Below are positions 1 through 46,996 of a stretch of DNA of 64,000 bases, in pieces. The DNA comes from Firmicutes bacterium CAG:460 (GTDB taxonomy: Bacteria > Bacteroidota > Bacteroidia > Bacteroidales > UBA932). A program made the translations under genes and the position numbers. The stretch spans positions 48,491-112,490 of the forward strand of contig CAVFNP010000001.1 of assembly GCA_963624185.1 (NCBI GenBank), read 5' to 3'. The notes beneath the pieces were generated by a model. That model had not been told where the DNA came from. It did not search any database and saw only the letters and a program-made list of their open reading frames with translations. Every line of letters begins with the position of its first letter. Position 1 is the stretch's first letter.

Positions 1-848
1 ACCAGGGATTCGATCTTATCATACGTCACCGTAACCGTGTGAACAAATTCAATTACGGTCTTACCGGTACCCTCACTTACGCTCACAACCGTATCCTCAG
101 CAAACAGCAGAGTGATAACATACTGCCTTGGCAGAGCGTGCTTGGTTGCTCGGTAGGTTCCATCTGGGGATATAAGTCAGACGGTCTTTACCAGAGTCAG
201 GATGAGATAGACAATTCTCCTAAGCCTGCAAGCGTAACGCCTCGCATAGGTGATATTAAGTATGTGGATATCAATGGTGATGGTCAGATCAATTCTGAAG
301 ATATGGTTCAGATAGCGCGCAGCAGCATGCCTGAGATGATGTTCTCATTCCAGTTCGATGCAGACTATGCAGGCTTCGACTTCTCGCTCCAGTTCCAGGG
401 CGCCGCACTTTGTGATAAGATGCTCATGGGCTCATGGTCAAATTATTCCGGCGTAGTCGATCTTACCCCTCTCACAGTTCCTTGGTATGCCAATTATGAC
501 AATGCTCCTCTCTACCTGGTAGAGGGCAGCTGGACTCCGGAAAATACCAATGCCGAGTTCCCGAGACTTTCAGTGGACAAATCTTCTTATGCCAATAACG
601 GTCTTCTTTCAGATTTCTGGAAAAGAGACGGCGCTTATCTGCGTTTGAAGAATGCTACCATCGGATATACATTCCCTGCCAAGTTGCTCAATAAGATAAA
701 TGTAGACAGACTCCGCATCTATCTTACGGGAACCAACCTTCTCACATTTACACAGTTCAAATACATCGACCCGGAAAGTACCAACGTTGTGACGGGATAT
801 TATCCTCAGCAGAGGACTGTCAGCTTCGGTGTGGATCTATCATTCTAA
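1..848 (+). CDS. SusC-like TonB-dependent outer-membrane transporter, C-terminal fragment (5' end lies upstream of the window)
   Basis: The frame is open from the window edge (in frame from nt 3: QGFDLIIRHRNRVNKFNYGLTG...). The sequence is beta-barrel-like and ends ...RTVSFGVDLSF with a terminal aromatic residue. A SusD-like lipoprotein gene follows 15 nt downstream, which is the canonical susC/susD arrangement. Confidence 0.85.
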   Translation, partial: QGFDLIIRHRNRVNKFNYGLTGTLTYAHNRILSKQQSDNILPWQSVLGCSVGSIWGYKSDGLYQSQDEIDNSPKPASVTPRIGDIKYVDINGDGQINSEDMVQIARSSMPEMMFSFQFDADYAGFDFSLQFQGAALCDKMLMGSWSNYSGVVDLTPLTVPWYANYDNAPLYLVEGSWTPENTNAEFPRLSVDKSSYANNGLLSDFWKRDGAYLRLKNATIGYTFPAKLLNKINVDRLRIYLTGTNLLTFTQFKYIDPESTNVVTGYYPQQRTVSFGVDLSF

Positions 849-2555: not shown

Positions 2556-2573
2556 TTCAATTGTTAAGAGATA

Positions 2574-4493: not shown

Positions 4494-4520
4494 TTACATA
4501 AACACTAAACAATAATTAAA

Positions 4521-6848: not shown

Positions 6849-6855
6849 TCATTTG

Positions 6856-6883
6856 CCGGCAGGAGGGTGATGCTTCCTGCCGG
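6856..6883 (+). terminator. Intra-operon stem-loop (weak terminator or attenuator candidate) between the surface-protein gene and the GH20 gene
   Basis: CCGGCAGGA (6856-6864) pairs with TCCTGCCGG (6875-6883), giving a 9-bp GC-rich stem. The following tract tcctatctttg is only moderately T-rich. Confidence 0.35.
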
Positions 6884-6907
6884 TCCTATCTTTGTAATTC
6901 ATTGATT

Positions 6908-10762: not shown

Positions 10763-10780
10763 ACAAAACTATCGACTATA

Positions 10781-12796: not shown

Positions 12797-12797
12797 A

Positions 12798-13979
12798 ATG
12801 AAAAAAATCAGACTTCTTTTTATAGTTATATTTTCTGCATTTCTGTTTGCTGGGTGTACTGAAAAGGCGCACGAGGTGCCGGATTGGAGAAAATATATAG
12901 ATGACGGCGGTAAAGTGGAACCGCCATCCGGAGAGGGCATCCCTTCGGACATGGTACTGCTTTATGGTGGCAGCCATCATCGCTCGCCATATAAATGGAG
13001 CGGAACATATCTGCAGGATTATGTTCTCTATAAGAACGCGTCGGGAGAGTATCATTATCTGTTTGACGGCTTCCTGTTCCTGGAATTCATGAATGTGGAG
13101 AACGGTACGGCGGAGAACAGGACGTATATTACAGGATATAAATATAATAACGTGGCTCTTCCATCCGCAAGAAAGGAGGATTGGCAGGCTTTGATAGATT
13201 ATTATTTTGAATCTGACGGCGGTGCTGATGCGCTCGAACAGGCTGTGGCTTGGGCTGTGAAAGAGTCCGGGCAGAGTCCTAAGACCAAAAGAAAAGTCGT
13301 AATCGGGATTCCTGAGCCTATAAAGAATGCCTCTTACAGCAACACTTCTTCGTCTACCGTTTATTGGGGTGCTTTGAATGGGGTCGATTTGGACTTTTCC
13401 AAGACTGCTGACCGTCTCAGTGCCTGCAAGTGGTATATAGACGAGATATCCAGCCGTTTCGCCGCGCGCAAATACACTTACATCGAACTTGCCGGTTTCT
13501 ATTGGGTGGCGGAAAAGGCTACCAATACCCGGGATCTGATGTCCGGAGTGGCAGAGTATCTGGATTCTAAAAACTTTAAGTTCAACTGGATACCTTACTA
13601 CACAGCGGACGGATTCTCGGAATGGAAGAGTTTCGGTTTCGACTGCGCTTATCTTCAGCCAAACTATTTCTTTAACACCTCTGTTCCCGACACGCGGCTT
13701 TCGGATGCTTGCACCCAGGCTTTGAAGTTCGGTATGGGTATGGAAATAGAATTTGACGGTAACGCTCTTGAAAAAAATGGCAGAGGTTATAAACTCCGTA
13801 ATTATATGGAGTATTTCAAGCGTTACGGCATATGGAAGTCTTCTCCGCTTGCTTACTATCAGGGCAGTTGGGCTCTCAAATGGCTTAAGGGCAGTTCTTC
13901 CGCTGCGGACCAGCAGCTTTACAACGATTTTTGCGAATTTGTAGTTACTCGCCCTTATAGAGACAGCTCCGGGAAGTAA
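12798..13979 (+). CDS. Lipoprotein of unknown function (possibly DUF4855-type; name from memory, unverified)
   Basis: ATG at 12798, 2 nt after the upstream stop. Lipoprotein signal MKKIRLLFIVIFSAFLFAGC. The longer ORF-track start at 12768 would overlap the upstream gene and lacks a signal peptide. Confidence 0.5.
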   Translation: MKKIRLLFIVIFSAFLFAGCTEKAHEVPDWRKYIDDGGKVEPPSGEGIPSDMVLLYGGSHHRSPYKWSGTYLQDYVLYKNASGEYHYLFDGFLFLEFMNVENGTAENRTYITGYKYNNVALPSARKEDWQALIDYYFESDGGADALEQAVAWAVKESGQSPKTKRKVVIGIPEPIKNASYSNTSSSTVYWGALNGVDLDFSKTADRLSACKWYIDEISSRFAARKYTYIELAGFYWVAEKATNTRDLMSGVAEYLDSKNFKFNWIPYYTADGFSEWKSFGFDCAYLQPNYFFNTSVPDTRLSDACTQALKFGMGMEIEFDGNALEKNGRGYKLRNYMEYFKRYGIWKSSPLAYYQGSWALKWLKGSSSAADQQLYNDFCEFVVTRPYRDSSGK

Positions 13980-14002: not shown

Positions 14003-15310
14003 ATGGCCAATAACAGTAAAAAAACTAATCTGAGTGCGATGATCATTCTCGCGGCGATGTTTTTCATCTTCGGCTTCGTGTCGTGGGTGAATTCGATTCT
14101 GATTCCGTATTTCAGAATCTCTTGCGAGCTGACTCATTTTGAATCTTATTTTGTCACATTTGCCTTTTATATAGCTTATTTCATTATGGCTATCCCGTCA
14201 AGTATCCTGCTTAAGAAGGTGGGATTCAAAAGCGGTATAATGATAGGCTTCATGATAATGGCTGCCGGTATGTTCGTGTTTGTTCCGGCAGCTATGGTAA
14301 GGGAGTTTGCGGTGTTTCTGCTTGGATTGTTCCTTATCGGGACGGGGCTGGCCATACTTCAGACTGCTGCCAATCCTTATGTCACCATCATAGGTCCTAT
14401 AGAGAGTGCCGCACAGAGGATAAGCATAATGGGAATCTGCAATAAATTGGCAGGTATAGTGTCTCCGCTGGTGTTCGCTGCGGTTATTCTCAGCCCGACG
14501 GACGGTGAACTGTTTGCGCTCATAGAGTCGGGAACGCTCTCGGATGTGGACAAGAATATTATTCTCGACGATCTTATCCGCCGTGTGATAGTGCCTTACA
14601 GTATCCTGGGTGCAGCCTTGTTGGTTTTCGGCCTGTTCATCAAGCACTCCAGCCTTCCTGAGATTGACACTGAAGAGAAGAATGCATCTGAAGATGAAGG
14701 AGAGTCCAGAAGAAGCGTGTTCTCGTATCCATATCTGGTGCTTGGCGCCATAGCTATTTTCTTTCACGTGGGAAGTCAGGTAGTGGCAATCGACACGGTA
14801 ATCAACTATGCTGATTCCATGGGTATCAATATGTTGGAAGCCAAAGTGTTCCCGTCGTATACTCTGACTTGCACCATGATAGGCTACATTCTGGGCATAT
14901 TCCTTATCCCCAAGGTCGTCTCACAGCGCCAGGCTTTGGTTTTCTGCTCTTGTCTGGGACTCATACTGTCGCTATGTGTGGTGTTTGTGGACTGTCCTGT
15001 AGTATTCTTTGGACACCATATTAATCTTTCACTGCTTTTCCTCTGTGCACTAGGATTTCCTAATGCCTTGATATACGCCTCTATCTGGCCGTTGTCAATA
15101 CATAATCTGGGTAAATTCACCAAAATAGGCTCGTCGCTTCTTATCATGGGCCTCTGCGGCAATGCCATTATGCCGCAGGTATATGGACTTATAGCTCGAG
15201 GAACGACCCTTAGAGCGGGATATTGGGTGCTGATTCCTTGCTTTTTGTATCTGATATTCTTCGCCCTCAAAGGTTACAAGATCAATTATTGGACTAAACA
15301 GAGTAAGTAA
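14003..15310 (+). CDS. MFS sugar:H+ symporter of the FucP/GluP/NagP type (likely hexosamine or hexose importer)
   Basis: 435 aa with about 12 hydrophobic segments. The N-terminal pattern FFIFGFVSWVNSILIPYF...LQTAANPYV is typical of glucose/galactose/fucose-family MFS permeases. It lies directly upstream of nagA. Confidence 0.85.
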   Translation: MANNSKKTNLSAMIILAAMFFIFGFVSWVNSILIPYFRISCELTHFESYFVTFAFYIAYFIMAIPSSILLKKVGFKSGIMIGFMIMAAGMFVFVPAAMVREFAVFLLGLFLIGTGLAILQTAANPYVTIIGPIESAAQRISIMGICNKLAGIVSPLVFAAVILSPTDGELFALIESGTLSDVDKNIILDDLIRRVIVPYSILGAALLVFGLFIKHSSLPEIDTEEKNASEDEGESRRSVFSYPYLVLGAIAIFFHVGSQVVAIDTVINYADSMGINMLEAKVFPSYTLTCTMIGYILGIFLIPKVVSQRQALVFCSCLGLILSLCVVFVDCPVVFFGHHINLSLLFLCALGFPNALIYASIWPLSIHNLGKFTKIGSSLLIMGLCGNAIMPQVYGLIARGTTLRAGYWVLIPCFLYLIFFALKGYKINYWTKQSK

Positions 15311-15312
15311 AA

Positions 15313-16512
15313 ATGGATAAACTGATAATAAAGGGGGGGAAATTGGTTTTTCCGGACAGGATAGAAAGCGGTCTTGCTCTGGTGTGCGACCGTTCCGAAG
15401 GAAAGATACTTGGTGTCGTCAGAGACTCTGATCTGAATGTCGAGAGCACAGACGAAGTCATCGATGCCGCAGGCTCTTACGTAAGTCCGGGATTTGTGGA
15501 TATTCACGTACACGGTGGCGGCGGATATGATTTTATGGACGGAACCATCGAAGCTTTTCTGGGTGCCAGCCGTATGCACGCCACGCACGGAACGACATCT
15601 ATGATTCCGACTACCGTGACCAGCACCGATGAAGATCTGTACGGGGTGTTCGATATATTCGAAAAAGCCTCTTCTCTCAATAAGGACGGCGCCGCTATGC
15701 TTGGCCTGCACCTGGAAGGACCTTATTTCAGCGCCGCGAAAAGCGGAGCGCAGGACCCCTCATATCTTAAGAATCCTACTCCAGAGCATTATATGCCAAT
15801 CCTTGAAGCCACTGACAAGATTATGCGCTGGAGTGTAGCGACTGAACTGCCTGGGGCTATGGCGTTCGGTGACGAACTCAGCAGGCGCGGTATTCTGCCG
15901 TCAATGGCGCATTCGGATGCTGTTTACGAAACGGTGGAAGAATCTGTACTCCACGGATATTCACATGTGACGCATCTGTATTGCGCGATGTCCACCATTG
16001 TTCGTAAAAATGCGTTTCGTTACGCCGGACTTCAGGAGGCGGCCTTCCTTTTGGACGACCTTACCGTGGAGATTATTGCGGACGGAGTGCATCTCCCTCG
16101 GCCACTTCTTCAATATGCTTTCAAGTTCAAGGGTGCGGATAAGACTGCGCTTTGCACTGATGCTATGCGAGCTGCCGGAATGCCGGACGGAACATATATC
16201 CTGGGCAGTCTGAAAAATGGTCAAAGCGTAATCGTGGAAGATGGGGTGGCCAAACTTCCGGACCGCAGTGCGTTTGCCGGCAGTGTCGCCACTACAGACA
16301 GGCTTGTCCGTACGATGGTGCAGGTGGCCGGCGTTTCTCTGGTGGATGCTGTGAAAATGATGACACTCACCCCGTCGCGAATAATGCGCATAGATGGTCG
16401 TAAAGGTTCGCTTCTGAGCGGAAAAGATGCTGATATAGTGATATTTGATGACAATATAGAAATCTTGGCCACCATTCGTGGCGGGAAAACCATATATAAA
16501 AAACATAATTGA
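15313..16512 (+). CDS. nagA: N-acetylglucosamine-6-phosphate deacetylase
   Basis: 399 aa. It has the amidohydrolase metal motif GFVDIHVHGGGGYDFMDG and the downstream HLEGP and ADGVH blocks typical of NagA. Confidence 0.9.
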   Translation: MDKLIIKGGKLVFPDRIESGLALVCDRSEGKILGVVRDSDLNVESTDEVIDAAGSYVSPGFVDIHVHGGGGYDFMDGTIEAFLGASRMHATHGTTSMIPTTVTSTDEDLYGVFDIFEKASSLNKDGAAMLGLHLEGPYFSAAKSGAQDPSYLKNPTPEHYMPILEATDKIMRWSVATELPGAMAFGDELSRRGILPSMAHSDAVYETVEESVLHGYSHVTHLYCAMSTIVRKNAFRYAGLQEAAFLLDDLTVEIIADGVHLPRPLLQYAFKFKGADKTALCTDAMRAAGMPDGTYILGSLKNGQSVIVEDGVAKLPDRSAFAGSVATTDRLVRTMVQVAGVSLVDAVKMMTLTPSRIMRIDGRKGSLLSGKDADIVIFDDNIEILATIRGGKTIYKKHN

Positions 16513-16522
16513 CTGATAAACA

Positions 16523-17281
16523 ATGAATGAATTTACAAAAGATCTGCTGAGGGTAAAGGTATATCCTACGACAGAGGAGATGGGCTTGGGTGCAGCAAAA
16601 GATGTGGCAGACAAAATTGTGGAGCTTCTTTCGACTAAAGAAGAAATCAATATGATATTCGCAGCTGCTCCGTCACAAAGCGCTTTTCTGGAGGCTCTTA
16701 TTGCTGACTCCAGGATTGAATGGAGCAGGATCAACGCTTTCCATATGGATGAATATATCGGTATTGATTTCTCACGCCCGCAAAGTTTTGCCAATTTCCT
16801 CTCACGAAGCATTTTCTCCAGAGTACCGTTTAAAAGCAGAAACTATATCAACGGTGCCGCAGAGAATCCGCAGGAGGAATGCAACAGATATGCACGCCTT
16901 TTGGAGGAGTTCCCTGTGGATATAGTGTGCCTTGGCATAGGGGAGAACGGTCATATAGCATTCAATGATCCGGATGTGGCGCTTTTCGATGATCCGCAGA
17001 TGGTCAAGATTGTAGCCATGGACCAGATTTGTCGTGGCCAACAGGTGAAGGAAGGATGTTTTCCGACGCTTGATGATGTCCCAAAACAGGCTATAACACT
17101 GACGGTTCCCGCTCTATGTCGAGCAGACTGGATGTTCTGCATAGTGCCGTTCATACACAAGGCTCCGGCTGTCAAGAGAATGCTGGACGGTGAAATTTCC
17201 GAGTCCTGTCCTGCATCTATTCTTCGGAAAAAAGAGAATTCTTGCTTATATTTGAATAAAGATAGTTCATCACTGCTTTAA
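16523..17281 (+). CDS. nagB: Glucosamine-6-phosphate deaminase / 6-phosphogluconolactonase-family protein
   Basis: 252 aa with the motif LGIGENGHIAFNDP and the preceding FHMDEY, as in NagB-family isomerase/deaminases. Adjacent to nagA. Confidence 0.8.
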   Translation: MNEFTKDLLRVKVYPTTEEMGLGAAKDVADKIVELLSTKEEINMIFAAAPSQSAFLEALIADSRIEWSRINAFHMDEYIGIDFSRPQSFANFLSRSIFSRVPFKSRNYINGAAENPQEECNRYARLLEEFPVDIVCLGIGENGHIAFNDPDVALFDDPQMVKIVAMDQICRGQQVKEGCFPTLDDVPKQAITLTVPALCRADWMFCIVPFIHKAPAVKRMLDGEISESCPASILRKKENSCLYLNKDSSSLL

Positions 17282-17287
17282 TCGTAT

Positions 17288-18307
17288 ATGAAACGTATTA
17301 TATTGTCATTTTTATTGTCGGGTATTCTTTCTCTCGGCACACTGCGAGCTCAGGATAATGTCATCAGGATAGGCATTATCGGACTGGACACATCGCATTC
17401 CACTGCTTTTACAGAACTTCTTAATTCGGAAGGTGATGACCCGTATGTAAAGCGTTTTGAAGTGGTAGCCGCATACCCGTATGGCTCAAAAACCATAGAG
17501 TCAAGTTATAAGAGAATCCCCGGTTATATAGAGGAAGTCAAGAAATATGGAGTGGTAATCACTGAGTCCATAGAGCAGCTGCTCGGCATGGTGGACTGTG
17601 TGCTTTTGGAAACTAATGACGGGCGTCTTCATCTGCAGCAGGCCGCTCAGGTTTTTGCGTCAGGAAAACCTGTTTATGTCGATAAACCTGCGGGAGCGAC
17701 TCTGGGTCAGGCGATAGCTCTGTATAAACTGGCAGAGCACTATGGCGTGAAGACCTTCTCCACTTCAGCTCTTCGTTTTTCTCCGCAGAACGTGAAGATA
17801 CGCGAGGGCGCTTATGGCCCTGTACTGGGTGCCGACTGTTATTCTCCGCATCACAGCGAAGCGACGCATCCGGACTTCGGATTCTATGGCATACACGGCG
17901 TGGAGACCCTTTACACGGTGATGGGTACGGGTTGTAAAGAAGTAAGCCGTGTCCATTCCGACTATGGAGACATCGTTTCCGGCGTATGGGAAGACGGAAG
18001 ACTGGGGACTTTCCGTGCGGTAAGTGTGGGACCTAACATATATGGTGGAACCATAGTGACAAAGGAAGGAACTGTTCCCTGTGGCGGTTATGAAGGCTAC
18101 AGGGTCCTGCTTAACGAGATTCTGGATTTCTTCCTTACCGGAGAACTTCCTGTTTCCGCTGAAGAGACCATAGAGATTTTCACTTTCATGAAAGCTTCGA
18201 ATATGAGTCTTGAAAGAGGCGGCAAGACCGTAAGCTTGTCCGAGGCATACAAACTGGGAGAGAAAGATGCTAAAAAACTGCTTTCCAAATATGGTGTCAA
18301 GCTTTAG
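17288..18307 (+). CDS. Exported Gfo/Idh/MocA-family oxidoreductase (Sec signal peptide)
   Basis: Signal peptide MKRIILSFLLSGILSLGTLRAQ, then a Rossmann start IRIGIIGLDTSHS. The family's EKP motif is replaced by VYVDKPAGATLGQA. Confidence 0.8.
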   Translation: MKRIILSFLLSGILSLGTLRAQDNVIRIGIIGLDTSHSTAFTELLNSEGDDPYVKRFEVVAAYPYGSKTIESSYKRIPGYIEEVKKYGVVITESIEQLLGMVDCVLLETNDGRLHLQQAAQVFASGKPVYVDKPAGATLGQAIALYKLAEHYGVKTFSTSALRFSPQNVKIREGAYGPVLGADCYSPHHSEATHPDFGFYGIHGVETLYTVMGTGCKEVSRVHSDYGDIVSGVWEDGRLGTFRAVSVGPNIYGGTIVTKEGTVPCGGYEGYRVLLNEILDFFLTGELPVSAEETIEIFTFMKASNMSLERGGKTVSLSEAYKLGEKDAKKLLSKYGVKL

Positions 18308-19565
18308 GTTCTTGTCCTTTACGATGGCTCTCCTGGCCTTCGCATCCTGCTCTCAAAGGCGGGATGTCACTTTGACGGTGATAGATCCAGGGCATTTTCA
18401 TGCCAATCTTCTTCAGAAGCATGATATGGATGGTGTCAATCGTAGCGTTAACGTATATGCACCGGAAGGGGAGGAGCTTGACGGGTATCTTGAAACTATA
18501 GAAAGCTATAATTCCAGGGATGTTGACCCGACATCTTGGAAGGAAAATGTATATACGGGTGATGATTATCTGGAGAGATTACCCGAGGCGGGAAAATATG
18601 AAGCGGTGATGCTTTCCGGCAACAATCGCAAGAAGACGAGCTACATAGCCTGTGCTGTGGACAAAGGATATAATGTTCTTTCTGACAAGCCGTTGGCTAT
18701 CAATAAGAAACAGTGGACTCTTCTTCGCGATGTCTACAAGAAGGCCGATGCCAGGCATCTTGTCATTCTTGATCTTATGACCGAAAGATACGACACTCTG
18801 AATATAATAGTTAAGAACCTGCTCTCGGACAAAGAGCTTTTCGGAGAGTTTGACTGCAGTCGCGGCCCGGCCGTCAGTATGACGAGCGTACATCATTTCT
18901 ATAAGGAGGTGTCCGGAGTGGCACTTCATCGTCCTGCCTGGTATTATGATGTAACTCAGCAGGGTGAGGGCATAGCAGATGTTACGACACATCTTATAGA
19001 TCTGGTTTTCTGGCAATGCTTCCCCGGAGTGGCAGTCGCTCTGGACGACGTCCAGGTAAACGGGGCATCGCATTTTCCTACGCGCATAAGTCTGGCTCAG
19101 TTTAAATCCAGCACCGGAGAGTCTTCTTTCCCGTCTTATCTTGATAAAGTCCGTAGCGGGGATTATATTGAAGTATTCTCCAATGGCAGTATAGATTTTA
19201 CGGTAAAGGGCATTCCGGTTCAGATGAATGTCACATGGAACTGGATGCCTCAGGAGGGTTCGTCGGACACTTTCGAGGCTATATATAAGGGTACGAAGGC
19301 CACTGTCATAGTACGGCAGGATCTTTCGACGGGATTTGTAAAACAGGTTTTCGTAAAGCCTTGCGAAGGTCGCGAATCTATGATAGAAGTGCCTATGGGC
19401 TGCAGAATAGGTCACGAGGATCATTTCAATCTGGTTGCCGGTCAATTCATGGAATATGTGAGGGGTCGTCAGAGGGTTCCTGAATGGGAGATTCAGAACA
19501 CTATCACCAAATACTATATTACAACTGCCGCTGTGGAGATGGCGTCAAAACAGGGGAGTCTTTGA
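18291..19565 (+). CDS. Lipoprotein related to Gfo/Idh/MocA enzymes (putative-oxidoreductase C-terminal-domain type)
   Basis: The start at 18291 gives the lipoprotein signal MVSSFRFLSFTMALLAFASC. It contains VIDPGHFHANLLQ and an EKP-like SDKPLAINKKQW. It overlaps the upstream gene by 17 nt, and its stop overlaps the apbE start (TGATG). Confidence 0.6.
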   Translation: MVSSFRFLSFTMALLAFASCSQRRDVTLTVIDPGHFHANLLQKHDMDGVNRSVNVYAPEGEELDGYLETIESYNSRDVDPTSWKENVYTGDDYLERLPEAGKYEAVMLSGNNRKKTSYIACAVDKGYNVLSDKPLAINKKQWTLLRDVYKKADARHLVILDLMTERYDTLNIIVKNLLSDKELFGEFDCSRGPAVSMTSVHHFYKEVSGVALHRPAWYYDVTQQGEGIADVTTHLIDLVFWQCFPGVAVALDDVQVNGASHFPTRISLAQFKSSTGESSFPSYLDKVRSGDYIEVFSNGSIDFTVKGIPVQMNVTWNWMPQEGSSDTFEAIYKGTKATVIVRQDLSTGFVKQVFVKPCEGRESMIEVPMGCRIGHEDHFNLVAGQFMEYVRGRQRVPEWEIQNTITKYYITTAAVEMASKQGSL

Positions 19566-20380
19566 TGGAGAAGATAGGGTATACATATTATGGGGAAGAG
19601 AAGTTTTTTCATTCCCATGCGGATAAGATAATGGGTACCCGTTATGATATGATTGTCTCCGGATTGGACGATACCGCATCCAGGACTTTGTGGGAGCGTG
19701 TTGTGAATCTGCTGAAAGGTGGAGACGCTGTATTTGACAGATTCTCTTCTGAGAGTGAAGTGTTTAAGGTAAATAGAAATCTTTCAGAAGGTGGATCTTC
19801 CTATTTGAGCCCTATTCTCGGCGGACAGATAAGAAAATGTCTGGAATATTCAAGAAGGACTTTAGGACTTTTCGACATAACCCGCGGACATATCGACAGT
19901 ATTCACCTTAGCGAGGACTTATTGTCCCTTGAAACTGGAGATAATGCCGTAAACCTTGATTTCGGCGGTTATGCCAAAGGATGGGCCTTGAAGGAGATAG
20001 TGGAGATTTTAAAAGCGGAGGGAGTGGAGTCGGCTTTTGTGGATTTCGGGGGCAGCTCCATTTATGCTATGGGCAGTCACCCTTCTGGAGACGGATGGCT
20101 TGTTGACCTTCCTTCTCCTTTTGACGCTCATACGGTCACTTCTTACGCACTTCACGATGAGGCGCTTTCCACTTCAGGAAACACGCCTTGGTACACGGGA
20201 CATATAGTTAATCCGTATTCTGGCGAAAAGGAGACATCACGTGCGCTGTCTACGGTCCGATGCTCCGATCCTTTGGATGCGGAGGTGTTGAGCACCGTGT
20301 ATATGATTTGCGATCAGGAGCAGAGGACTGAGATAGAAAATAATTTTCCTGAAGTTAAATTTGAAAAATTCAATCTTTAA
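19565..20380 (+). CDS. apbE: ApbE-family FAD:protein FMN transferase with no recognisable signal peptide
   Basis: ApbE-like blocks are present: KIMGTRYDMIV, FDITRG, DFGGYAKGWAL and FVDFGGS. The N-terminus MEKIGYTYYGEEKFFH is hydrophilic. The only in-frame upstream extension (from 19484) is also hydrophilic. Confidence 0.8.
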   Translation: MEKIGYTYYGEEKFFHSHADKIMGTRYDMIVSGLDDTASRTLWERVVNLLKGGDAVFDRFSSESEVFKVNRNLSEGGSSYLSPILGGQIRKCLEYSRRTLGLFDITRGHIDSIHLSEDLLSLETGDNAVNLDFGGYAKGWALKEIVEILKAEGVESAFVDFGGSSIYAMGSHPSGDGWLVDLPSPFDAHTVTSYALHDEALSTSGNTPWYTGHIVNPYSGEKETSRALSTVRCSDPLDAEVLSTVYMICDQEQRTEIENNFPEVKFEKFNL

Positions 20381-21708
20381 TGGAATATAAGGATAAATTG
20401 GCCCTGGATATGGGGCGCAGAAACTTTATTAAACAGATGGGCTTTTTGGCTGGGGGAGCTGCACTTATCTCTTCCGCTCCTTGGCTTTCTTCCTGCACTC
20501 CGGAGAAATTGGAGCTGACAGGCAAGGAAGTGGCCCGTATCGCCTTGATAGGGACTGGTTCAAGAGGCCAATATCATATTCATAATCTTTTGCTGTTTCC
20601 GCATGCCAGGATAGTGGCCCTTTGCGACATATATGATGTGAACCTGAAGGCAGCGGCAGCTTTGTGCCCGGATTCTCCACGTTTGTATAGCGATTATCGC
20701 AAGCTTTTGGAAGATAAGGATATAGATGGTGTCATAATATCCACTCCGCTTGGAGCTCATGCCCAGATAACCCTCGATGCGCTGTCGGCAGGCAAACATG
20801 TGTTCTGCGAGAAGGCCATGGCCCGTACCCTTGATGAGTGCAAAGCCATATATGATGCTTACCAGAAGACGGATCGTGCTCTTTATTTCTGTATGCAGAG
20901 AATGTACGATCCTAAATATATAAAGGGTATGCAGATGATTCGTGACGGTGTGATAGGCGAAGTGGTGGGGATGCGATGCCATTGGTTCAGAAATGCCGAC
21001 TGGAGACGTGAGGTCCCTTCGCCTGAACTGGAAAGGCAGATCAACTGGCGTCTGTATAAAGAATATTCAGGAGGTCTGATGACCGAACTTGCCTGCCATC
21101 AATTGGAAGTGTGCAACTTGGCGGCCGGGAAGATTCCTTCTTCAGTAACCGGTATGGGAGATATCATTTATTGGAAAGACGGACGTGAGGTCTATGATGC
21201 CGTGAACGTCATATATCGTTACTCCGATGGGCGAAAGATAAACTATGAATCCCTAATTTCCAACAAGTTCAATGGTATGGAGGACCAGATTCTTGGACAT
21301 CGCGGCACGATGGATCTCACCAAGGGGGTGTATTATCTTGAAGAGGACAACAGCCGCTCCGGAATAGAAACTTTGGTGGGCAATATCAAGAACAAAGTGT
21401 TCTCGTCTGTTCCGTTGGCCGGACCAAGCTGGCGTCCTGAAGTCAAAGGGGATGCCATTCCGCACTCGATAATAGAGGGAAAGGTCAGTGTGAACGGCGG
21501 ACAGAATATGATAGGAGTGGACAATGACGCATCTGATACTATTCTTTCTGCATTCTGCACATCGTGCATAAGCGGCGAAAAAGCTGAAAATGTGGTGGAA
21601 GAGGCTTATTGCTCAACCGTCCTTTGTCTTCTGGGCAACAAGGCTATGGATGAGCAGCGTACCATCATTTTCCCGGAATACTATAAAATCCCGTATATGA
21701 AGTTCTGA
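20380..21708 (+). CDS. TAT-exported Gfo/Idh/MocA-family oxidoreductase (GH109-like NAD-dependent glycosidase candidate)
   Basis: Twin-arginine signal MGRRNFIKQMGFLAGGAALISSAPWLSSC. Rossmann segment IALIGTGSRGQYH and EKP motif FCEKAMARTLDEC. The start overlaps the apbE stop (TAATG, 20378-20382). Confidence 0.8.
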   Translation: MEYKDKLALDMGRRNFIKQMGFLAGGAALISSAPWLSSCTPEKLELTGKEVARIALIGTGSRGQYHIHNLLLFPHARIVALCDIYDVNLKAAAALCPDSPRLYSDYRKLLEDKDIDGVIISTPLGAHAQITLDALSAGKHVFCEKAMARTLDECKAIYDAYQKTDRALYFCMQRMYDPKYIKGMQMIRDGVIGEVVGMRCHWFRNADWRREVPSPELERQINWRLYKEYSGGLMTELACHQLEVCNLAAGKIPSSVTGMGDIIYWKDGREVYDAVNVIYRYSDGRKINYESLISNKFNGMEDQILGHRGTMDLTKGVYYLEEDNSRSGIETLVGNIKNKVFSSVPLAGPSWRPEVKGDAIPHSIIEGKVSVNGGQNMIGVDNDASDTILSAFCTSCISGEKAENVVEEAYCSTVLCLLGNKAMDEQRTIIFPEYYKIPYMKF

Positions 21709-21709
21709 T

Positions 21710-21943
21710 ATGAAAGATATAGTAATACCTTCGAAGATAATACGTAGAGAACTTCTGGTGGTCCTCACGTGCTTTTTGACCTCGTTTCTTGTGAATGTGG
21801 GCGCTGTTATCGCTTATCACAAATCCTGGACGGAGATTTTTTCTCAGATTGGTTATGTTGTAGTGATAAGTGTATTTTTTTATGTAATATTGTGGATAAT
21901 AAGAATCCTGTTTTTAATAATAAAGAAAATAATTAACCGATAA
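21710..21943 (+). CDS. Small membrane protein (two predicted TM helices), unknown function
   Basis: 77-aa ORF starting 2 nt after the upstream stop. It has two hydrophobic stretches (LLVVLTCFLTSFLVNVGAVIAY and GYVVVISVFFYVILWIIRILFLII) and sits wedged between the two TAT oxidoreductase genes. Confidence 0.5.
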   Translation: MKDIVIPSKIIRRELLVVLTCFLTSFLVNVGAVIAYHKSWTEIFSQIGYVVVISVFFYVILWIIRILFLIIKKIINR

Positions 21944-21947
21944 TAAT

Positions 21948-23288
21948 ATGACTTCACGAAGAGAATTTATAAAAAGTGCAGCCCTTGCCACTGCAGGTCT
22001 TACGCTTTCCAATGCTGTTCCGTCGTTTGCGGTATCGAAAAAAGGCTCTATCATAGGGGCCAATGACCGTATCAGGATAGGTGTGATAGGTGTCAACTCA
22101 AGAGGAAGCGCTCTTGCGCAGAGTTTTGCGAAGATGCCTAAGTGCGAGGTTACATATATATGCGATTGTGATACCGAGGCTCTTGAGAGATGCCGTGCGC
22201 AGATCAAATCGCTCACCGGTAAACTTCCTAAAGGGGAGACGGATATTCGCCGTATGCTCTCCTCCGATGAATTTGACGCCGCTGTCATAGCTATGCCTGA
22301 CCATTGGCATGCCAAGGCCGCCATTATGGCTATGAAGGCAGGAAAGCACGTTTATCTGGAGAAGCCTACCAGCCATAACCCTGCAGAAAATGAGATGCTT
22401 ATGCGCGCTGCAGTCAAGTATGGAAAGGTTATTCAGGTCGGCAATCAGCGCCGCTCTTGGCCTAACATCATAGCGGCCATAGAAGAGATCAAGGCTGGAA
22501 ATATAGGACATGTCCATTATGCCAAGTCTTGGTATGTCAACAATCGTCCGTCAATAGGTACTGGCAGGGTGGTCAGCGTTCCTTCTCACCTCAATTGGGA
22601 TCTGTGGCAGGGGCCGGCTCCGCGCACCGAGTATAGGGACAATATCGTTCACTACAATTGGCATTGGTTCTGGCACTGGGGAACAGGTGAAGCGCTTAAT
22701 AACGGCACTCACTTCGTGGATCTTATGCGTTGGGGACTCGACGTGGACTATCCGACGCTGGTAAGTTCAGTGGGAGGCAGATACAGATTCCAGGACGATT
22801 GGCAGACTCCTGACACGCAGCTCATTACATATCAGTTCGGAGATAAGGCCGCAGGTTCCTGGGAAGGTCGTAGCTGTAATAATTCAGCGGTTGACGGGGC
22901 TGGCGTAGGCGTGGCTTTCTATGGAGAGAACGGCACCCTTTATCTGAACGGTGGTAACGAGTATAAGATTCTCGATCTGGGCGGCAATGTAGTGAAGGAC
23001 GTGAAGAGCGAGCTCAAATTCGAGACAGGCAATCTTCTTAATCCTAGCGAGCAGCTTGACGCATTCCACTTTGAGAACTGGTTCGATGCCATACGCAAGG
23101 GAGAAAAATTGCATTCAGACATTAACAGCGCTTGCATAAGCACACAGCTCGTACAGCTTGGAAATATAGCCCAGAGAGTGGGTCATTCCCTTAAGATAGA
23201 GCCTGTAAGCGGCCGTATCATAGGAGATGAAGATGCACAGAAGCTCTGGGGACGTGAATACGAACCTGGTTGGGGAATAGAAATCTAA
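21948..23288 (+). CDS. TAT-exported Gfo/Idh/MocA-family oxidoreductase
   Basis: Twin-arginine signal MTSRREFIKSAALATAGLTL. Rossmann segment IRIGVIGVNSRGS and EKP motif VYLEKPTSHNPAEN. 446 aa. Confidence 0.8.
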   Translation: MTSRREFIKSAALATAGLTLSNAVPSFAVSKKGSIIGANDRIRIGVIGVNSRGSALAQSFAKMPKCEVTYICDCDTEALERCRAQIKSLTGKLPKGETDIRRMLSSDEFDAAVIAMPDHWHAKAAIMAMKAGKHVYLEKPTSHNPAENEMLMRAAVKYGKVIQVGNQRRSWPNIIAAIEEIKAGNIGHVHYAKSWYVNNRPSIGTGRVVSVPSHLNWDLWQGPAPRTEYRDNIVHYNWHWFWHWGTGEALNNGTHFVDLMRWGLDVDYPTLVSSVGGRYRFQDDWQTPDTQLITYQFGDKAAGSWEGRSCNNSAVDGAGVGVAFYGENGTLYLNGGNEYKILDLGGNVVKDVKSELKFETGNLLNPSEQLDAFHFENWFDAIRKGEKLHSDINSACISTQLVQLGNIAQRVGHSLKIEPVSGRIIGDEDAQKLWGREYEPGWGIEI

Positions 23289-23300
23289 TACTTTAAACAT

Positions 23301-24332
23301 ATGGCAAAAATCGTTACTTTCGGAGAAATTATGCTTCGCCTGGCGACTCCCGGACATCTCCGGTTCAGTCAGGCCCACGAGTTTGAAGCAACTTTCGGTG
23401 GAGGAGAGGCCAATGTCGCCGTTTCTCTCGCCGCTTTCGGGGAAGATGCACAGTTTGTATCCGCCTTGCCTTCCAACGACATCGCCGCAGCTTGTCTGAG
23501 TGAACTTCGCGCTCTCGGCGTGGGGACTTCGCACTGCATTCAGAGCGGAGACAGAATTGGCATCTATTATATTGAAAAAGGTGCTGTATGCAGGCCGAGC
23601 AAAGTGGTGTATGACAGGGCGCATTCTTCTATTGCTGAGATTAAATCCGGTATGATTGATTGGACGAAGGTATTCGAAGGCGCCGATTGGTTTCACTGGA
23701 CGGGTATTACTCCGGCTATCAGTCAGGGCGCTGCCGATGTTCTGAAAGAGGCGCTGGAAGCAGCAGTCAAAGCAGGTGTGAAGATTTCCTGTGATTTGAA
23801 TTACCGCAAGAATCTGTGGAAATATGGCAAAACAGCTTCAGAGGTGATGCCAGAGCTGGTGTCGTTCTGTGATGTTATCATAGGCAACGAAGAGGATGCT
23901 CAGAAAGTTTTCGGCATAAGCGCCGAAGGCTGTGATACGGATAACGGCGTGATAGACAGTAGTAAATACGAAAAGGTGGGAAGTGCTTTGATGCAGAAAT
24001 TCCCGAAAGCCGGGATTGTAGCCATAACTCAGCGAAGTTCGATAAATGCCGACCATAATGTGTGGGCGGCAGTGCTTTACGACGGGAAAGAACTCAAGTA
24101 TTCTAAGCACTATGATATCACCGATATCGTGGACAGGGTAGGAGGAGGTGATTCTTTCGCTGCCGGTCTTATTTACGCTCTGATTGAGTATAAGGATACG
24201 CAGAAGGCGCTGGAGTTCGCTACGGCGGCATCGTGTCTTAAGCACACTATAGAAGGCGATTATAACCGTGTCTCCAGCTCCGAGGTGGAAGCTCTTATGA
24301 ATGGTAACGCTTCCGGAAGGGTTTCAAGATAA
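23301..24332 (+). CDS. kdgK: 2-dehydro-3-deoxygluconokinase (PfkB family)
   Basis: The N-terminus MAKIVTFGEIMLRLATPGHLRFSQAHEFEATFGGGEANVAVSLA is typical of KdgK. It has the C-terminal PfkB motif VDRVGGGDSFAAGLIY. Adjacent to eda. Confidence 0.85.
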   Translation: MAKIVTFGEIMLRLATPGHLRFSQAHEFEATFGGGEANVAVSLAAFGEDAQFVSALPSNDIAAACLSELRALGVGTSHCIQSGDRIGIYYIEKGAVCRPSKVVYDRAHSSIAEIKSGMIDWTKVFEGADWFHWTGITPAISQGAADVLKEALEAAVKAGVKISCDLNYRKNLWKYGKTASEVMPELVSFCDVIIGNEEDAQKVFGISAEGCDTDNGVIDSSKYEKVGSALMQKFPKAGIVAITQRSSINADHNVWAAVLYDGKELKYSKHYDITDIVDRVGGGDSFAAGLIYALIEYKDTQKALEFATAASCLKHTIEGDYNRVSSSEVEALMNGNASGRVSR

Positions 24333-24344
24333 ATCTAAAATATT

Positions 24345-25013
24345 ATGGCAGGAAAAAACAAAATTCAGGTCCTTTCGACCGCTTTTTCTACGGGTCTTAT
24401 ACCTGTATTTTATGATTCATCTGCAGAGCGCGCAAAAAAAGTGCTCCTGGCCTGTTACCGAGGTGGAATCAGGGTGTTTGAGTTTACAAATCGCGGAGAT
24501 TTCGCTCATGAGGTATTTGCAGAATTGTCAAAATTCGCTTCTGTAGAGACTCCGGACCTGGTTTTGGGTGCAGGCTCAATAGTTGACCCTTCCACTGCAG
24601 CTCTTTACATGCAGTTGGGGGCCAGATTCATAGTCGGGCCAATCTTCAATGCCGAGGTTGCTCAGGTATGCAACCGTCGTCTGGTGCCTTATGTTCCGGG
24701 GTGCGGCAGTGTTACTGAGGTAAGCAATGCGCAGGCAGCCGGCTGCGATCTGTGCAAGGTGTTCCCTGGAGATGTCCTGGGACCAGCTTTTGTGAAGGGC
24801 CTTAAAGCTCCGATGCCGTGGAGCCAGATACTTGTGACCGGTGGAGTAAAGCCGGAGGTGGATAATCTCCGTTCTTGGTTCAAGGCCGGCGCTTCATGTG
24901 TAGGTATGGGAAGCAATCTCTTCCCTAAGGAAGAAATCCATCTTGGCGATTGGGAATCCATTTCCCGCAGGTGTGAGACTTGTTTAAAAATTATTAATGA
25001 TGTCAGAAAGTAA
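24345..25013 (+). CDS. eda: KDPG / 4-hydroxy-2-oxoglutarate aldolase
   Basis: 222 aa with Eda-like blocks [22 protein letters not shown] and TGGVKPE. It lies between kdgK and uxuA. Confidence 0.85.
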
Positions 25014-25023
25014 AGTGTTCCGG

Positions 25024-26187
25024 ATGACGGAGAGCTGGAGATGGTACGGACCTGATGATCCGGTGCCATTGGCGTATATAAAACAGGCAGGAGTGACGGA
25101 TATCGTGCATGCGCTGCATCATATTCCCAACGGGAAAGTGTGGAGCGTAGAGGAGATACGGTCCCGTCAGAAGATGATTTCCGATGCCGGCCTTAAGTGG
25201 AGCGTGGTTGAAAGTGTTCCTGTACACGAGCATATCAAGACGCGCGAAGGTGATTATCAGCGTTATATAGACAATTACAAGCAGAGCATCCGTAATCTCT
25301 CGGAGTGCGGGATACATTGCATAACTTATAATTTTATGCCTGTTCTGGATTGGACTAGAACGGATCTGGCATACACTATGCCGGATGGAAGCAAGGCTCT
25401 GCGTTTCGAAATGGCTGCGTTTGTGGCTTTCGATCTTTATATACTTAAGCGTCCGGGAGCGGAGAATGCATATACTCTGCATCAGAAGCAGCAGGCCAAG
25501 GAGCGCTTCGCTTCGATGTCTGAACAAGAAAAGGAGCTGATAACCAGAAATATGATTGCCGGTCTTCCGGGGAGCGAGGAAAGTTTTACTCTGGATCAGT
25601 TCCGGCAGGCTCTTTCCCGTTATGATCATATATCTGCGGAGCAATTGCGAGAAAATCTCGTTTATTTCCTTTCTGAGGTATGCCCGGTAGCTGATGAGTG
25701 CGGTTCGATGATGGTCATCCATCCTGATGATCCACCGTTCTCTCTGCTTGGACTTCCGCGCATCCTTTCTACTGCGCAGGATTTCCGCGACCTCGTAAAG
25801 GCCGTTCCTAACGAGTCGAACGGATTGTGTCTGTGCACCGGCTCTATGGGCGTGCGCGCGGACAATGACTGTGTGGCTATGATGCGTGAATTCGGAGATC
25901 GTGTAGGATTTGTCCATCTCCGTACTACCAAACGTGACGAAGAAGGTAACTTCCACGAGGCCAATCTTCTGGATGGGGATGTGGATATGTATGGAATGAT
26001 GCGTGCACTTCTGGAAGTGGAGCAGCGCCGCGGAGTGAGCATCCCTGTACGTCCGGATCATGGGCATCAGATGTGCGATGATCTTTACCGCAAATCGAAT
26101 CCGGGTTATTCCTGCTATGGCAGAATGCGCAGTCTTGCAGAATTGCGCGGCCTTCAGGAGGGAATCATTAAATCGTTAGGATTATGA
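25024..26187 (+). CDS. uxuA: Mannonate dehydratase
   Basis: It starts [14 protein letters not shown], the canonical UxuA N-terminus. About 387 aa from the ATG at 25024. It contains RPDHGH near the C-terminus. Confidence 0.9.
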
Positions 26188-26999
26188 ATCTTTTTGACAT
26201 AAAAGGCAAGGTCGCTGTAATGACAGGGGCTTGTGGAGTTTTGGGCTCCACTATTGTAAAGTATTTTGCAGCACAGGGGTGCAAAGTCGTGATATTGGAT
26301 CTTGAACGTTCGCGTCAGATCGGAGAGGCTCTTGTCAAGGATATAACAGACGAGGGCGGAGAAGCCATTTTTCTTCCGACCAATGTGTTGGACAAGGCCA
26401 CACTTGAAGAAAATTACACTCAGATAATGTCCGCTTATGGTAGGATAGACATCCTTTTGAATGCTGCCGGAGGCAATATGGCATCCGCTACGGTGCCGCC
26501 GGACAAGACCATTTTTGATCTGGATGTAGAGGCCGTAAAGAAGGTTACGGAACTTAACCTATTCGGAACCATCATTCCGACTATGGTCTTTGCACGTGCG
26601 ATGGCGGAGCAGAAGAGCGGTTCCATCATTAATTTCGCGTCGGAATCAGCACTCAGACCTCTCACGAGAGTAGCAGGGTATGGAGTGGCTAAGGCAGCTG
26701 TTGCCAATTGGACCAAATATCTCTGTGCTGAACTGGCGATGAAGTTCGGCGAGGGAATAAGAGTCAATGCCATAGCTCCGGGATTTCTTCTGACCAATCA
26801 GAATCGCAGCCTGCTGACTAATGAGGACGGATCGCTCACGGAGCGTTCTCATACTATCCTTTCGCATACTCCTATCGGGCGTTTCCTTGAACCGGATGAA
26901 CTGGTGGGGACACTTCATTATCTCGCTTCGGACGCATCCAAGGCTGTTACCGGTACCGTCTGCGTAGTGGACGGCGGATTCGATGCTTTTTCGATATAG
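26184..26999 (+). CDS. SDR-family oxidoreductase, probably the SDR-type D-mannonate oxidoreductase (YjmF/UxuB-like)
   Basis: 271 aa with the TGACGVLG cofactor motif and a YGVAKAA catalytic Y-x3-K. An ATGA start/stop overlap with uxuA implies translational coupling. Confidence 0.7.
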
Positions 27000-46798: not shown

Positions 46799-46996
46799 TC
46801 TTTTTTTAGGAAAATTCACGGGAAGCTTGCATCACTGCGAGCTTCCCGCTACTTAACCTAAACTTAAACTATGAAAAACTTCGATACAAAAGTAAAATTT
46901 TTTCTAATAAAATGCAAACTTTAAAAAGAAATAATAATTTTTTCGCTATCATTGCGTCCAAGCTGTGATGTTGCAGTGACACTAAACTTATTGATT

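Follow-up and report, generated by a model that had tools for sequence, protein, structure and literature searches.

A signal-less ApbE-fold protein, a Tat-type Gfo/Idh/MocA dehydrogenase and a membrane miniprotein are encoded as a conserved gene trio in Bacteroidales

We analyzed a 64,000-nucleotide stretch of DNA from Firmicutes bacterium CAG:460, a member of the Bacteroidales by its GTDB lineage (assembly GCA_963624185.1, contig CAVFNP010000001.1, positions 48,491 to 112,490 of the forward strand), referred to here as the window. It holds six tightly spaced genes, g1 to g6, which an initial annotation made from the sequence had described as an exported redox module inside a polysaccharide utilization locus (PUL). 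We are highly confident that three of the six form a real, dedicated module: g3, an ApbE-fold protein; g4, a dehydrogenase of the Gfo/Idh/MocA family with a signal of the twin-arginine translocation (Tat) type; and g5, a membrane miniprotein. What the trio does can be proposed only tentatively: g3 may attach flavin mononucleotide (FMN) to g4. A check of the open reading frames (ORFs) placed all six where they had been annotated, on the plus strand and with both of the reported stop/start overlaps (TGATG at 19563-19567 between g2 and g3, and TAATG at 20378-20382 between g3 and g4). The spacers flanking g5 are 1 to 4 nucleotides (nt) long.

The trio was recognized by its gene order. When a single genome was scanned for each species, relatives turned up in 424 genomes, and the locus counts given here come from the best 80, all of them Bacteroidales, with the ORFs of all loci classified by comparison with the window proteins. 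These 80 include a Bacteroides thetaiotaomicron-labelled metagenome-assembled genome (MAG), B. xylanisolvens XB1A, B. faecalis, B. caecimuris, Alistipes and Tidjanibacter, together with Proteiniphilum, Dysgonomonadaceae, Muribaculaceae and Cryptobacteroides. The g4 gene lay directly 3' of the ApbE gene in 69 of the 74 loci with room for it (median gap, 3 nt, with many overlaps), and g5 lay directly 3' of g4 in 63 of 69 (median gap, 3 nt). The outer genes were kept less often, with g2 preceding ApbE in 53 of 76 loci and g6 following g5 in 38 of 65. About 45 loci carry an extended block (MFS-NagA-NagB-g1-g2-ApbE-g4-g5-g6, MFS being a major facilitator superfamily transporter), and in about 14, several Bacteroides included, ApbE-g4-g5 stands alone. 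Conservation is much stronger in g4 and g6 (64 to 99% identity) than in ApbE and g2 (37 to 56%). An arrangement that recurs over 80 species-level loci is far beyond chance. The annotated six-gene block thus holds as a linkage kept across Bacteroidales, while the conserved unit within it is ApbE-g4-g5 and not all six genes.

The surroundings of the trio vary. When it stands alone in several Bacteroides, it is flanked by genes for a class II aminoacyl-tRNA synthetase and an FKBP protein at one end and by an HU-like gene at the other. The trio of Cryptobacteroides has a divergent orientation relative to genes for a Tat-signal Gfo protein and a PF06439 3-keto-disaccharide hydrolase. Since the trio is also found by itself near tRNA-synthetase genes, it is not intrinsically a PUL module; the annotated placement inside a PUL is right for the window, which has a SusC/SusD pair and a GH20 glycosidase, and does not hold for the core trio in general. 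We also observed three loci (L081, L083 and L045) in which a PfkB kinase gene, not g4, follows ApbE, and ApbE heads an operon next to the block. In L081 (9950-15627), the one locus of the three that was annotated, this operon encodes ApbE, the PfkB kinase, a LarA_N-like protein, 6-phosphogluconate dehydrogenase (6PGD) and a short-chain dehydrogenase/reductase (SDR); it adjoins a gene for an AraC/LacI-type hybrid regulator and is divergent from the remainder of the block.

The same order was found farther out. An ApbE profile hidden Markov model was searched against 1.8 billion representative proteins and gave 1,155 matches at E <= 1e-30; the short ApbE clade makes up approximately the top 57, and proteins of 270 to 320 amino acids (aa) come next. 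We examined the genomic context of seven more distant ApbEs, six of which were on contigs long enough, and read the DNA of five. In all six, a signal-less ApbE (290 to 316 aa) is followed by a Gfo/Idh/MocA protein of 421 to 440 aa and then by an ORF of 76 to 84 aa. In all five loci whose DNA was read, the Gfo protein has a true RR Tat motif and the small ORF is a clear g5 homolog. The distant trio of L087 has genes for a PF06439 protein, a BT2158-type Gfo protein and a DUF6807 (PF14100) protein upstream (1460-5267), and PF06439 and BT2158-type Tat Gfo genes adjoin the trio in unrelated lineages (L040, L069, L073 at approximately 7700-9900, and L087). Because the order is kept in distant relatives and g5 stays unfused, the trio is an old, self-contained module, of which the six genes of the window are one elaboration.

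Family assignments here and below were made from Pfam, NCBIfam and PDB comparisons. g3 matches PF02424 with 115 bits (Pfam cut-off, 25.6) but scores only 31 bits against the NCBIfam equivalog NF007774, “FAD:protein FMN transferase ApbE” (FAD, flavin adenine dinucleotide), below its cut-off of 498. An AlphaFold (AF2) model built on a 100-sequence alignment had a predicted local distance difference test score (pLDDT) of 94 and a predicted template modeling score (pTM) of 0.92, and Foldseek aligned it to solved ApbE/Ftp structures (4ifw, 6nxi, 7esa, 2o18 and others) with template modeling (TM) scores of 0.72 to 0.81, at identities of only 16 to 22%. A database search with g3 returned 557 relatives, and nearly all of the best 120 are 260 to 280 aa long. 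Alignments of 20 and of 100 homologs share the start M-x(5-7)-YY-x5-FHG-x3-R-x-MGT. No hydrophobic N terminus or signal peptide was found in 100 plus 86 ApbE homologs, whose median maximal 10-residue hydropathy over the first 45 aa was 1.1, versus 2.7 for g1 and g2. The other possible start of g3, an ATG at 19484, adds 27 nonhydrophobic residues that overlap g2 and provides no signal peptide. The annotation had called this ApbE signal-less, and that reading is borne out; nothing in its sequence would by itself take g3 out of the cytoplasm. It had also called the lack of a signal unusual, yet the feature is not new, as a cytoplasmic ApbE is already known in Klebsiella pneumoniae together with a soluble FMN-containing fumarate reductase (reviewed in PMC12052999).

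The residues of g3 were mapped by profile alignment to Escherichia coli Ftp, with roles as given in PMC4767422. In that enzyme Y60 stacks on the isoalloxazine ring, and a Tyr here marks the FAD-binding transferase class, with a polar residue marking the pyrophosphatase class (PMC4767422). The gap-free alignment places F60 of g3 at this position, which is F or Y in all members, the distant ones included. E169 of the E. coli active site (Lys in Treponema pallidum Ftp) corresponds to the invariant K138, the metal-site residues D280, D283 and T284 correspond to E240, S243 and T244, and the catalytic H257 of Vibrio cholerae corresponds to H213. The conserved elements of g3 are M23-G-T, F60, D132-F-G-G-x-A-K138-G, S-x-S-G-N, H213 and E240-x-x-S-T244. 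Within the short clade, neither H213 nor T244 varies, nor does the Glu (E240) that replaces the metal-site Asp; the His is shifted in the distant member L087. Compared to canonical ApbEs, g3 is shorter by about 30 residues behind the FDIT motif and by about 8 in the flexible loop, which bears R240 in E. coli. Taken together, the residue pattern looks functional for an FAD-binding FMN transferase, and we regard g3 as a genuine, divergent and probably active flavin-binding family member.

g4 has full N- and C-terminal Gfo/Idh/MocA domains (PF01408, 78 bits; PF22725; PF02894) and keeps both the GxGxxG loop (IGTGSRG) and the CEK motif. Against the BT2158-type model NF058561, it scores 79 bits, below the cut-off of 750. 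A search with g4 for outgroup homologs returned near-identical sequences only. Its signal in the window reads GRRNFIK...LSSC, a twin arginine followed by a lipobox, and the h-regions of g4 and g6 are weakly hydrophobic and Tat-like, whereas those of g1 and g2 are Sec-like. The R-R pair is present in the window, in its close relatives and in five of five distant homologs. In 51 of 74 orthologs it has become L-R (D-L-x-L-R-x-F-I-K), with the other Tat consensus positions kept. The Tat-type signals annotated for g4 and g6 are both there in the window, but that of g4 does not keep its twin arginine across orthologs. A CxxC motif (FCTSCISGEK) and one further Cys within residues 393 to 416 of g4 (approximately 21556-21627) are conserved in Bacteroidales orthologs. 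We considered this C-terminal CxxC as a core redox motif and rejected it because distant trio members do not have it; it may form a disulfide or a redox feature particular to that lineage.

The g5 ORF is a genuine gene. The locus set contains 66 distinct orthologs, which conserve MKDIxI, E14, N29, the loop RPWxELFxQxG, Y58 and R65, and the distant homologs show the pattern MKD-x-I/V...E...N...W-x-EL...Y...R. A profile search retrieved 509 database clusters, all of 76 to 94 aa, and across these clusters we found neither a Pfam family nor a fusion (Rosetta stone) of g5 with ApbE, g4 or another domain. No Ser or Thr is conserved among the g5 orthologs, so g5 cannot be the flavin acceptor. Separately, clusters of proteins at 90% identity were seen to mix adjacent genes (ApbE with g4, g2 with ApbE, and NagA with NagB); these are probably read-through or fused gene calls in some assemblies, as no genuine fusion protein was seen among them.

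We propose, with less than even confidence, that g3 flavinylates g4 before or during Tat export and so gives its bound nicotinamide adenine dinucleotide [NAD(H)] a membrane-proximal electron outlet. In this proposal, g3 would be an active, Mg-dependent, FAD-binding FMN transferase on the cytoplasmic side, as its conserved residues and missing signal suggest. Its client would be g4. The linkage, the translational coupling and the precedent of apbE paralogs lying beside their clients make this neighbor the most likely one; g6, missing from many loci, is an unlikely client. With a Tat-type signal on g4 and no signal on g3, the simplest course would be flavinylation on the cytoplasmic side and then export of the holoprotein. 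Folded g4, loaded with NAD(P) and FMN, would pass through Tat, and its lipid anchor and g5 would keep it at the membrane; the conserved periplasmic loop of g5 could contact g4, and the conserved cytoplasmic N terminus of g5 could contact g3. The covalent flavin would serve as an electron outlet or inlet for a nonexchangeable nicotinamide in a place where free NAD is absent. Such an outlet would permit net oxidation or reduction of sugars or 3-keto-sugars.

The proposal calls for an acceptor residue. Canonical ApbE acceptors carry D-x-x-[S/T]-G-A-[S/T], a motif that tolerates single substitutions (PMC12052999). In the six window proteins, we found no match even to [ST]-G-[AGS]-[ST]. With no canonical motif in any linked protein of 93 loci, the linkage alone points to a covalent flavin on one of them, and the acceptor would have to be a noncanonical serine. 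Hydroxyl residues of g4 that stay invariant when the five distant homologs are included are few, and most fall in motifs common to Gfo enzymes. The exception is Ser350, in the invariant pattern P345-x-x-G348-x-S350-W351-x-P353. Most Bacteroidales have A-G-P-S-W there and the distant members have G-G-A-S-W, the variable position being P, A, S or K. G-x-S-W-x-[PS] is present in 78 of 82 g4 ORFs and absent from all 58 g6 ORFs and from three unlinked Gfo proteins of distant loci. The motif sits in a stretch specific to g4, an insertion about 40 residues long to which no part of the solved Gfo structures aligns. Speculatively, then, the best candidate would be Ser350 in P-x-x-G-[P/A/S/K]-S-W-x-P, which resembles the G-A-[S/T] core of a motif known to tolerate substitutions; it is a candidate acceptor and nothing more. 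In its most specific form, the proposal would make g4 the first known Gfo/Idh/MocA protein with covalent FMN, attached in the cytoplasm at the G-x-S-W serine and exported by Tat, and would make g4 and g5 together a membrane-linked electron outlet or inlet. We regard this specific form as doubtful.

Several observations weigh against flavinylation of g4. Among approximately 3,700 ORFs from 86 loci, D-x-x-[ST]-G-[AS]-[ST] occurred in no member of a linked family and in one unrelated ORF, and none of the linked proteins has an FMN_bind-type domain. The Glu-for-Asp change at the metal site of g3 and its two deletions mean that its activity could differ from that of canonical ApbEs. The AF2 model of g4, made from a shallow alignment of homologs at least 79% identical, has a pLDDT of 44. 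Ser350 cannot be placed in it, and with no fold position to be read from the model, Ser350 stays a guess at the level of the motif. The L-R pair of 51 of the 74 g4 orthologs makes Tat export of a preloaded protein uncertain in those species. In the Proteiniphilum and Alistipes lineages, g4 has F or Q at the position of the lipobox Cys and keeps the next residues, TPEK. Finally, no cofactor-binding residues are conserved in g5, which leaves a route to quinone conjectural.

The missing motif would be less surprising if g3 were not a flavinylase. It could be a cofactor-handling or assembly factor for g4, such as a chaperone for FAD, FMN or a dinucleotide, a pyrophosphatase or a noncovalent flavin subunit, and the periplasmic enzymes would be redox neutral, as in the 3-keto pathway of gut Bacteroidales (BT2156-BT2160/AL1-AL5). 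In that known pathway, the 3-keto-sugar product serves to recycle the bound NAD and an outlet is not needed, and some Ftp proteins are indeed FAD pyrophosphatases. The divergence of g3 (16 to 22% identity to solved ApbEs and 31 bits against a cut-off of 498), its loop deletions and its Asp-to-Glu change fit this explanation as well. However, the aromatic residue at the Y60 position belongs with the FAD-binding transferases and not with the pyrophosphatases, which are polar there, and the catalytic His and the metal ligands are strongly conserved. To our knowledge, no function other than transferase or pyrophosphatase is known in the ApbE family. We consider it unlikely that g3 is such a factor.

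Two further explanations keep the flavinylase and change where or on what it acts. A signal-less ApbE could ride through Tat in a folded, FAD-loaded complex with g4 and act in the periplasm on g4 or another protein. Canonical ApbEs do act outside the cytoplasm, the translational coupling of ApbE and g4 suits a stoichiometric complex, and NosX and NirX of Paracoccus are ApbE-family proteins that cross Tat in the folded state (PMC7660919). This passenger role is nevertheless quite improbable in view of the degenerate RR motif of most g4 orthologs, of the three loci (L081, L083 and L045) where ApbE heads an operon of cytoplasmic enzymes (PfkB, 6PGD and SDR) and not of g4, and of the 86-locus ORF scan, which found no linked periplasmic client with the canonical motif. 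Alternatively, the place of g3 beside g4 could be meaningless, with g3 serving an unlinked cytoplasmic FMN_bind flavoprotein (similar to fumarate or urocanate reductase) or being the housekeeping Nqr/Rnf factor. Cytoplasmic ApbEs with cytoplasmic clients are known (PMC12052999), and the ORF scan of the 86 loci turned up no local client motif. Against this, ApbE stays next to g4 and g5 from one Bacteroidales family to another, and also in distant relatives whose similarity is approximately 20 to 30% lower, and the stop and start codons often overlap. Nqr/Rnf clients, moreover, are flavinylated in the periplasm, out of reach for a signal-less enzyme, and Bacteroides have a separate lipoprotein ApbE. 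We find both versions very hard to believe and rejected the housekeeping role because of the conserved synteny. The linkage is kept in Bacteroides, Alistipes, Proteiniphilum, Tidjanibacter, Cryptobacteroides and others, which upholds the annotated view of g3 as a dedicated enzyme. Flavinylation of g4 before or during export is the reading that we carry forward, tentatively, against rivals that together are substantial.

The remaining genes of the six add partners whose roles are less clear than their families. g1 matches PF01408 with 32 bits (cut-off, 24), has only remote similarity to PDB entries, has a strongly hydrophobic N terminus (median, 2.7) and keeps GIIGLDTSH invariant in 54 orthologs. 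g2 matches PF16490 (Oxidoreduct_C) with 272 bits and PF01408 with 18 bits, the latter below the cut-off, and aligns to PDB 4oo3 (“hypothetical protein”) at E 3e-96; it has the lipobox FASC and carries DPGHFHA at the GxGxxG position. The count of four Gfo/Idh/MocA-type proteins in the initial annotation is accurate for fold or family but probably not for NAD binding, since the GxGxxG loop is replaced in g1 and g2. The split between Sec-type g1 and g2 and Tat-type g4 and g6 fits a rule whereby only cofactor-loaded proteins need Tat. g6 has full Gfo/Idh/MocA domains (PF01408, 65 bits) with GVNSRG and EKP; its Tat motif, SRREFIK, keeps RR in 42 of 45 orthologs and matches the Tat-signal models PF10518 and TIGR01409. 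The best NCBIfam match of g6 is NF058561 (BT_2158_fam), at 160 bits against a cut-off of 750, and its best PDB matches are 8tdf and 8tdh (E 1e-26). By these matches g6 is related to the BT2158-type family and is not a member, so the annotated link to 3-keto-glycoside enzymes stands as a distant kinship below the family cut-off. Kinship to GH109, also suggested there, did not hold up: similarity to 2ixa and 6t2b (E 1e-11 to 1e-21) is no closer than to many other Gfo enzymes. GH109 membership is not supported; the match is confined to the Rossmann domain and equalled by many dehydrogenases. A lead to BT4448/BT4449 was rejected, both belonging to the BT2158 paralog cluster and not to the six-gene block.

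In the extended block, the export signals mirror those of the 3-keto pathway: Sec for g1, a lipoprotein signal for g2 and Tat for g4 and g6, compared to Sec for AL1, a lipoprotein signal for AL2 and Tat for AL3. This analogy suggests that g1 and g2 are nonredox partners, which is pure inference. With their NAD loops lost, they could be analogs of the lyase and hydratase steps. Products would feed the NagP-like transporter, NagA, the NagB-like protein and the KdgK/Eda/UxuAB sugar-acid route. The NagP-like MFS, NagA and NagB-like neighbors, together with KdgK/Eda/UxuAB or PfkB/6PGD, point to substrates containing N-acetylhexosamine (HexNAc) and to sugar-acid or keto-sugar products.

The window places the six genes in a PUL with the order SusC-SusD-DUF5018-DUF4988/BACON-GH20-742-aa protein-DUF6259-DUF4855-NagP-like MFS-NagA-NagB-like-[six genes]-KdgK-Eda-UxuA-UxuB (Table 1). 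The SusC frame is open from the start of the window and ends in a typical SusC C terminus (...RIYLTGTNLLTFT...VSFGVDLSF, then the stop codon). The glycan-facing half of the PUL (2574-13979) consists nearly entirely of uncharacterized families (DUF5018, DUF4988/BACON, the 742-aa protein, DUF6259 and DUF4855) plus the GH20 enzyme. The NagP-like MFS is kept upstream of the block in approximately 45 loci, and the KdgK/Eda/UxuAB set also flanks the block in Alistipes and Rikenellaceae loci. In other species, the same redox block is joined to GH26/GH2 or GH43/GH20 sets. Beyond the PUL, we noted a predicted lipoprotein on the minus strand, a DUF6359/DUF4493 protein and two genes near the 3' end of the window, an integrase-like one and a helix-turn-helix (HTH)/IrrE one, which suggest the edge of a mobile element.

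The closest relatives of this region (L007, L008, L010 and L011) have 65 to 93% ApbE identity and full PUL synteny. They are MAGs labelled Lachnospiraceae, Treponemataceae, Firmicutes and Oscillibacter, all from one series (H07xxx-L1_cleanbin), and their Bacteroidales gene content makes these taxon labels look wrong.

Table 1. Features of the window, in order of position
Feature	Coordinates	Strand	Description
SusC-type TonB-dependent receptor, C-terminal part	3-848	+	Cut by the window edge; directly upstream of SusD
SusD-family glycan-binding lipoprotein	864-2555	+	PF07980, 174 bits; PF14322; PUL marker
GH20	6902-8533		Only recognizable glycosidase in the glycan-facing PUL half
742-aa protein	8534-10762		No family match
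NagP-like MFS sugar transporter	14003-15310	+	NagP_SO3503, 387 bits, below cut-off of 625; gluP subfamily model passes
NagA, N-acetylglucosamine-6-phosphate deacetylase	15313-16512	+	TIGR00221, 262 bits (cut-off, 226); syntenic in extended block
Divergent cytoplasmic NagB/6-phosphogluconolactonase family member	16523-17281	+	PF01182, E 1e-19; TIGR00502, 118 bits (cut-off, 237)
g1	17288-18307	+	Sec-exported Gfo/Idh/MocA-fold protein; GLDTSH at GxGxxG loop position
g2	18291-19565 (other start, 18267)	+	PF16490 lipoprotein; stop overlaps ApbE start
g3 (ApbE)	19565-20380	+	271 aa; PF02424; core trio member
g4	20380-21708	+	442-aa Gfo/Idh/MocA dehydrogenase; Tat-type signal and lipobox; core trio member
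g5	21710-21943	+	77-aa membrane miniprotein, two transmembrane helices; core trio member
g6	21948-23288	+	Gfo/Idh/MocA dehydrogenase, predicted to be Tat exported; distantly related to BT2158-type glycoside 3-dehydrogenases
KdgK, Eda, UxuA, UxuB (D-mannonate oxidoreductase)	23301-26999	+	Cytoplasmic sugar-acid catabolic set; NCBIfam and Pfam
612-aa predicted lipoprotein	27076-28914	-	No Pfam match; two similar OB-like segments by eye, near the N and C termini
DUF6359/DUF4493 protein	46952-48148
Phage-integrase SAM-like domain protein	58624-59856		Near 3' end of window
HTH and IrrE/M78 peptidase protein	62554-63669		Near 3' end of window

Periplasmic NAD-dependent glycan processing in gut Bacteroidales is a recently recognized, broad-specificity alternative to glycoside hydrolases. 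The module reaches B. thetaiotaomicron-group species, B. xylanisolvens, Alistipes, Proteiniphilum and several hundred other species. If the proposed flavinylation is true, it would explain how periplasmic dehydrogenases with locked NAD(H), including those of the 3-keto-glycoside pathway, are reoxidized in vivo. It would also define a new class of ApbE client without the canonical motif and a new order of events, flavinylation and then export. Even without flavinylation, the trio represents an uncharacterized, widespread set of gene families, among them a 77-aa membrane protein outside Pfam.

The initial annotation knew of no described system of this kind, and our literature searches on ApbE with Gfo/Idh/MocA proteins, with Bacteroides PULs and with the twin-arginine pathway, and on DUF4855 and DUF6259, turned up no account of such a module either. 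The largest comparative survey of ApbE systems removed genes without a signal peptide or lipidation site (PMC8238504), so the signal-less class is not covered there. Among known systems, ApbE/Ftp and its clients (NqrB/C, RnfD/G, NosR, PceC and PplA) are the natural reference. g3 is alike in fold (TM, approximately 0.8) and family (PF02424) and shares MGT, AKG, SxSG and the isoalloxazine-stacking aromatic residue, together with, in the short clade, the His and the Thr at the catalytic and metal-site positions. Its gene adjoins that of the presumed client, an arrangement also seen for apbE in the nqr, nos and rnf clusters. It differs in having no signal peptide or lipobox, in its low identity (16 to 22%), in the Glu for the metal Asp and in the active-site deletions of about 30 and about 8 residues, and no FMN_bind, DUF2271 or DUF3570 client or canonical motif lies near it. 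The Klebsiella system likewise has a second, signal-less ApbE paralog with a dedicated client; that client, however, is cytoplasmic, with FMN_bind and the canonical motif, whereas g4 is a Gfo/Idh/MocA protein with a Tat-type export signal, accompanied by a membrane miniprotein. Passage of a folded, FAD-loaded ApbE through Tat, and the role of ApbE paralogs as system-specific maturation factors, are illustrated by NosX and NirX; NosX, however, has its own Tat signal and serves NosR, and g3 has no signal.

Other comparisons come from the dehydrogenase side. Zymomonas glucose-fructose oxidoreductase (GFOR) and Caulobacter aldose-aldose oxidoreductase (AAOR) are periplasmic Tat Gfo/Idh/MocA enzymes with tightly held NADP, which g4 matches at E 1e-16 to 1e-21. 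Each of the two is a self-contained ping-pong enzyme with no flavin, ApbE or membrane partner, and the approximately 40-residue G-x-S-W-x-P insertion belongs to g4 only. The GH109 NAD-dependent alpha-N-acetylgalactosaminidases of Bacteroidota are a further group of Gfo-fold proteins exported by Tat, with HexNAc glycosides as substrates, but they need no external redox partner, and the match to them is limited to the Rossmann domain. Judged by these comparisons, Tat Gfo enzymes with locked NAD(P) are known (GFOR, AAOR, BT2158 and GH109), none of them with flavin, ApbE or a miniprotein.

A further parallel to the extended block is the BT2156-BT2160/AL1-AL5 pathway of gut Bacteroidales. Both have a Tat-type Gfo dehydrogenase with nonexchangeable NAD (by prediction in the window), Sec-exported and lipoprotein partners and an MFS transporter, and g6 is a distant relative of BT2158. 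The window differs in having no DUF1080/PF06439 protein and no xylose-isomerase-like lyase, and the pathway differs in having no ApbE and no miniprotein, its own 3-keto product recycling its NAD. Its authors found that the enzyme stalls in the reduced state in vitro and left the reoxidation of NADH in vivo open. In some genomes, the trio adjoins PF06439 and BT2158-type genes of this very kind, and it would be a concrete, testable candidate answer to how nonexchangeable NADH is reoxidized.

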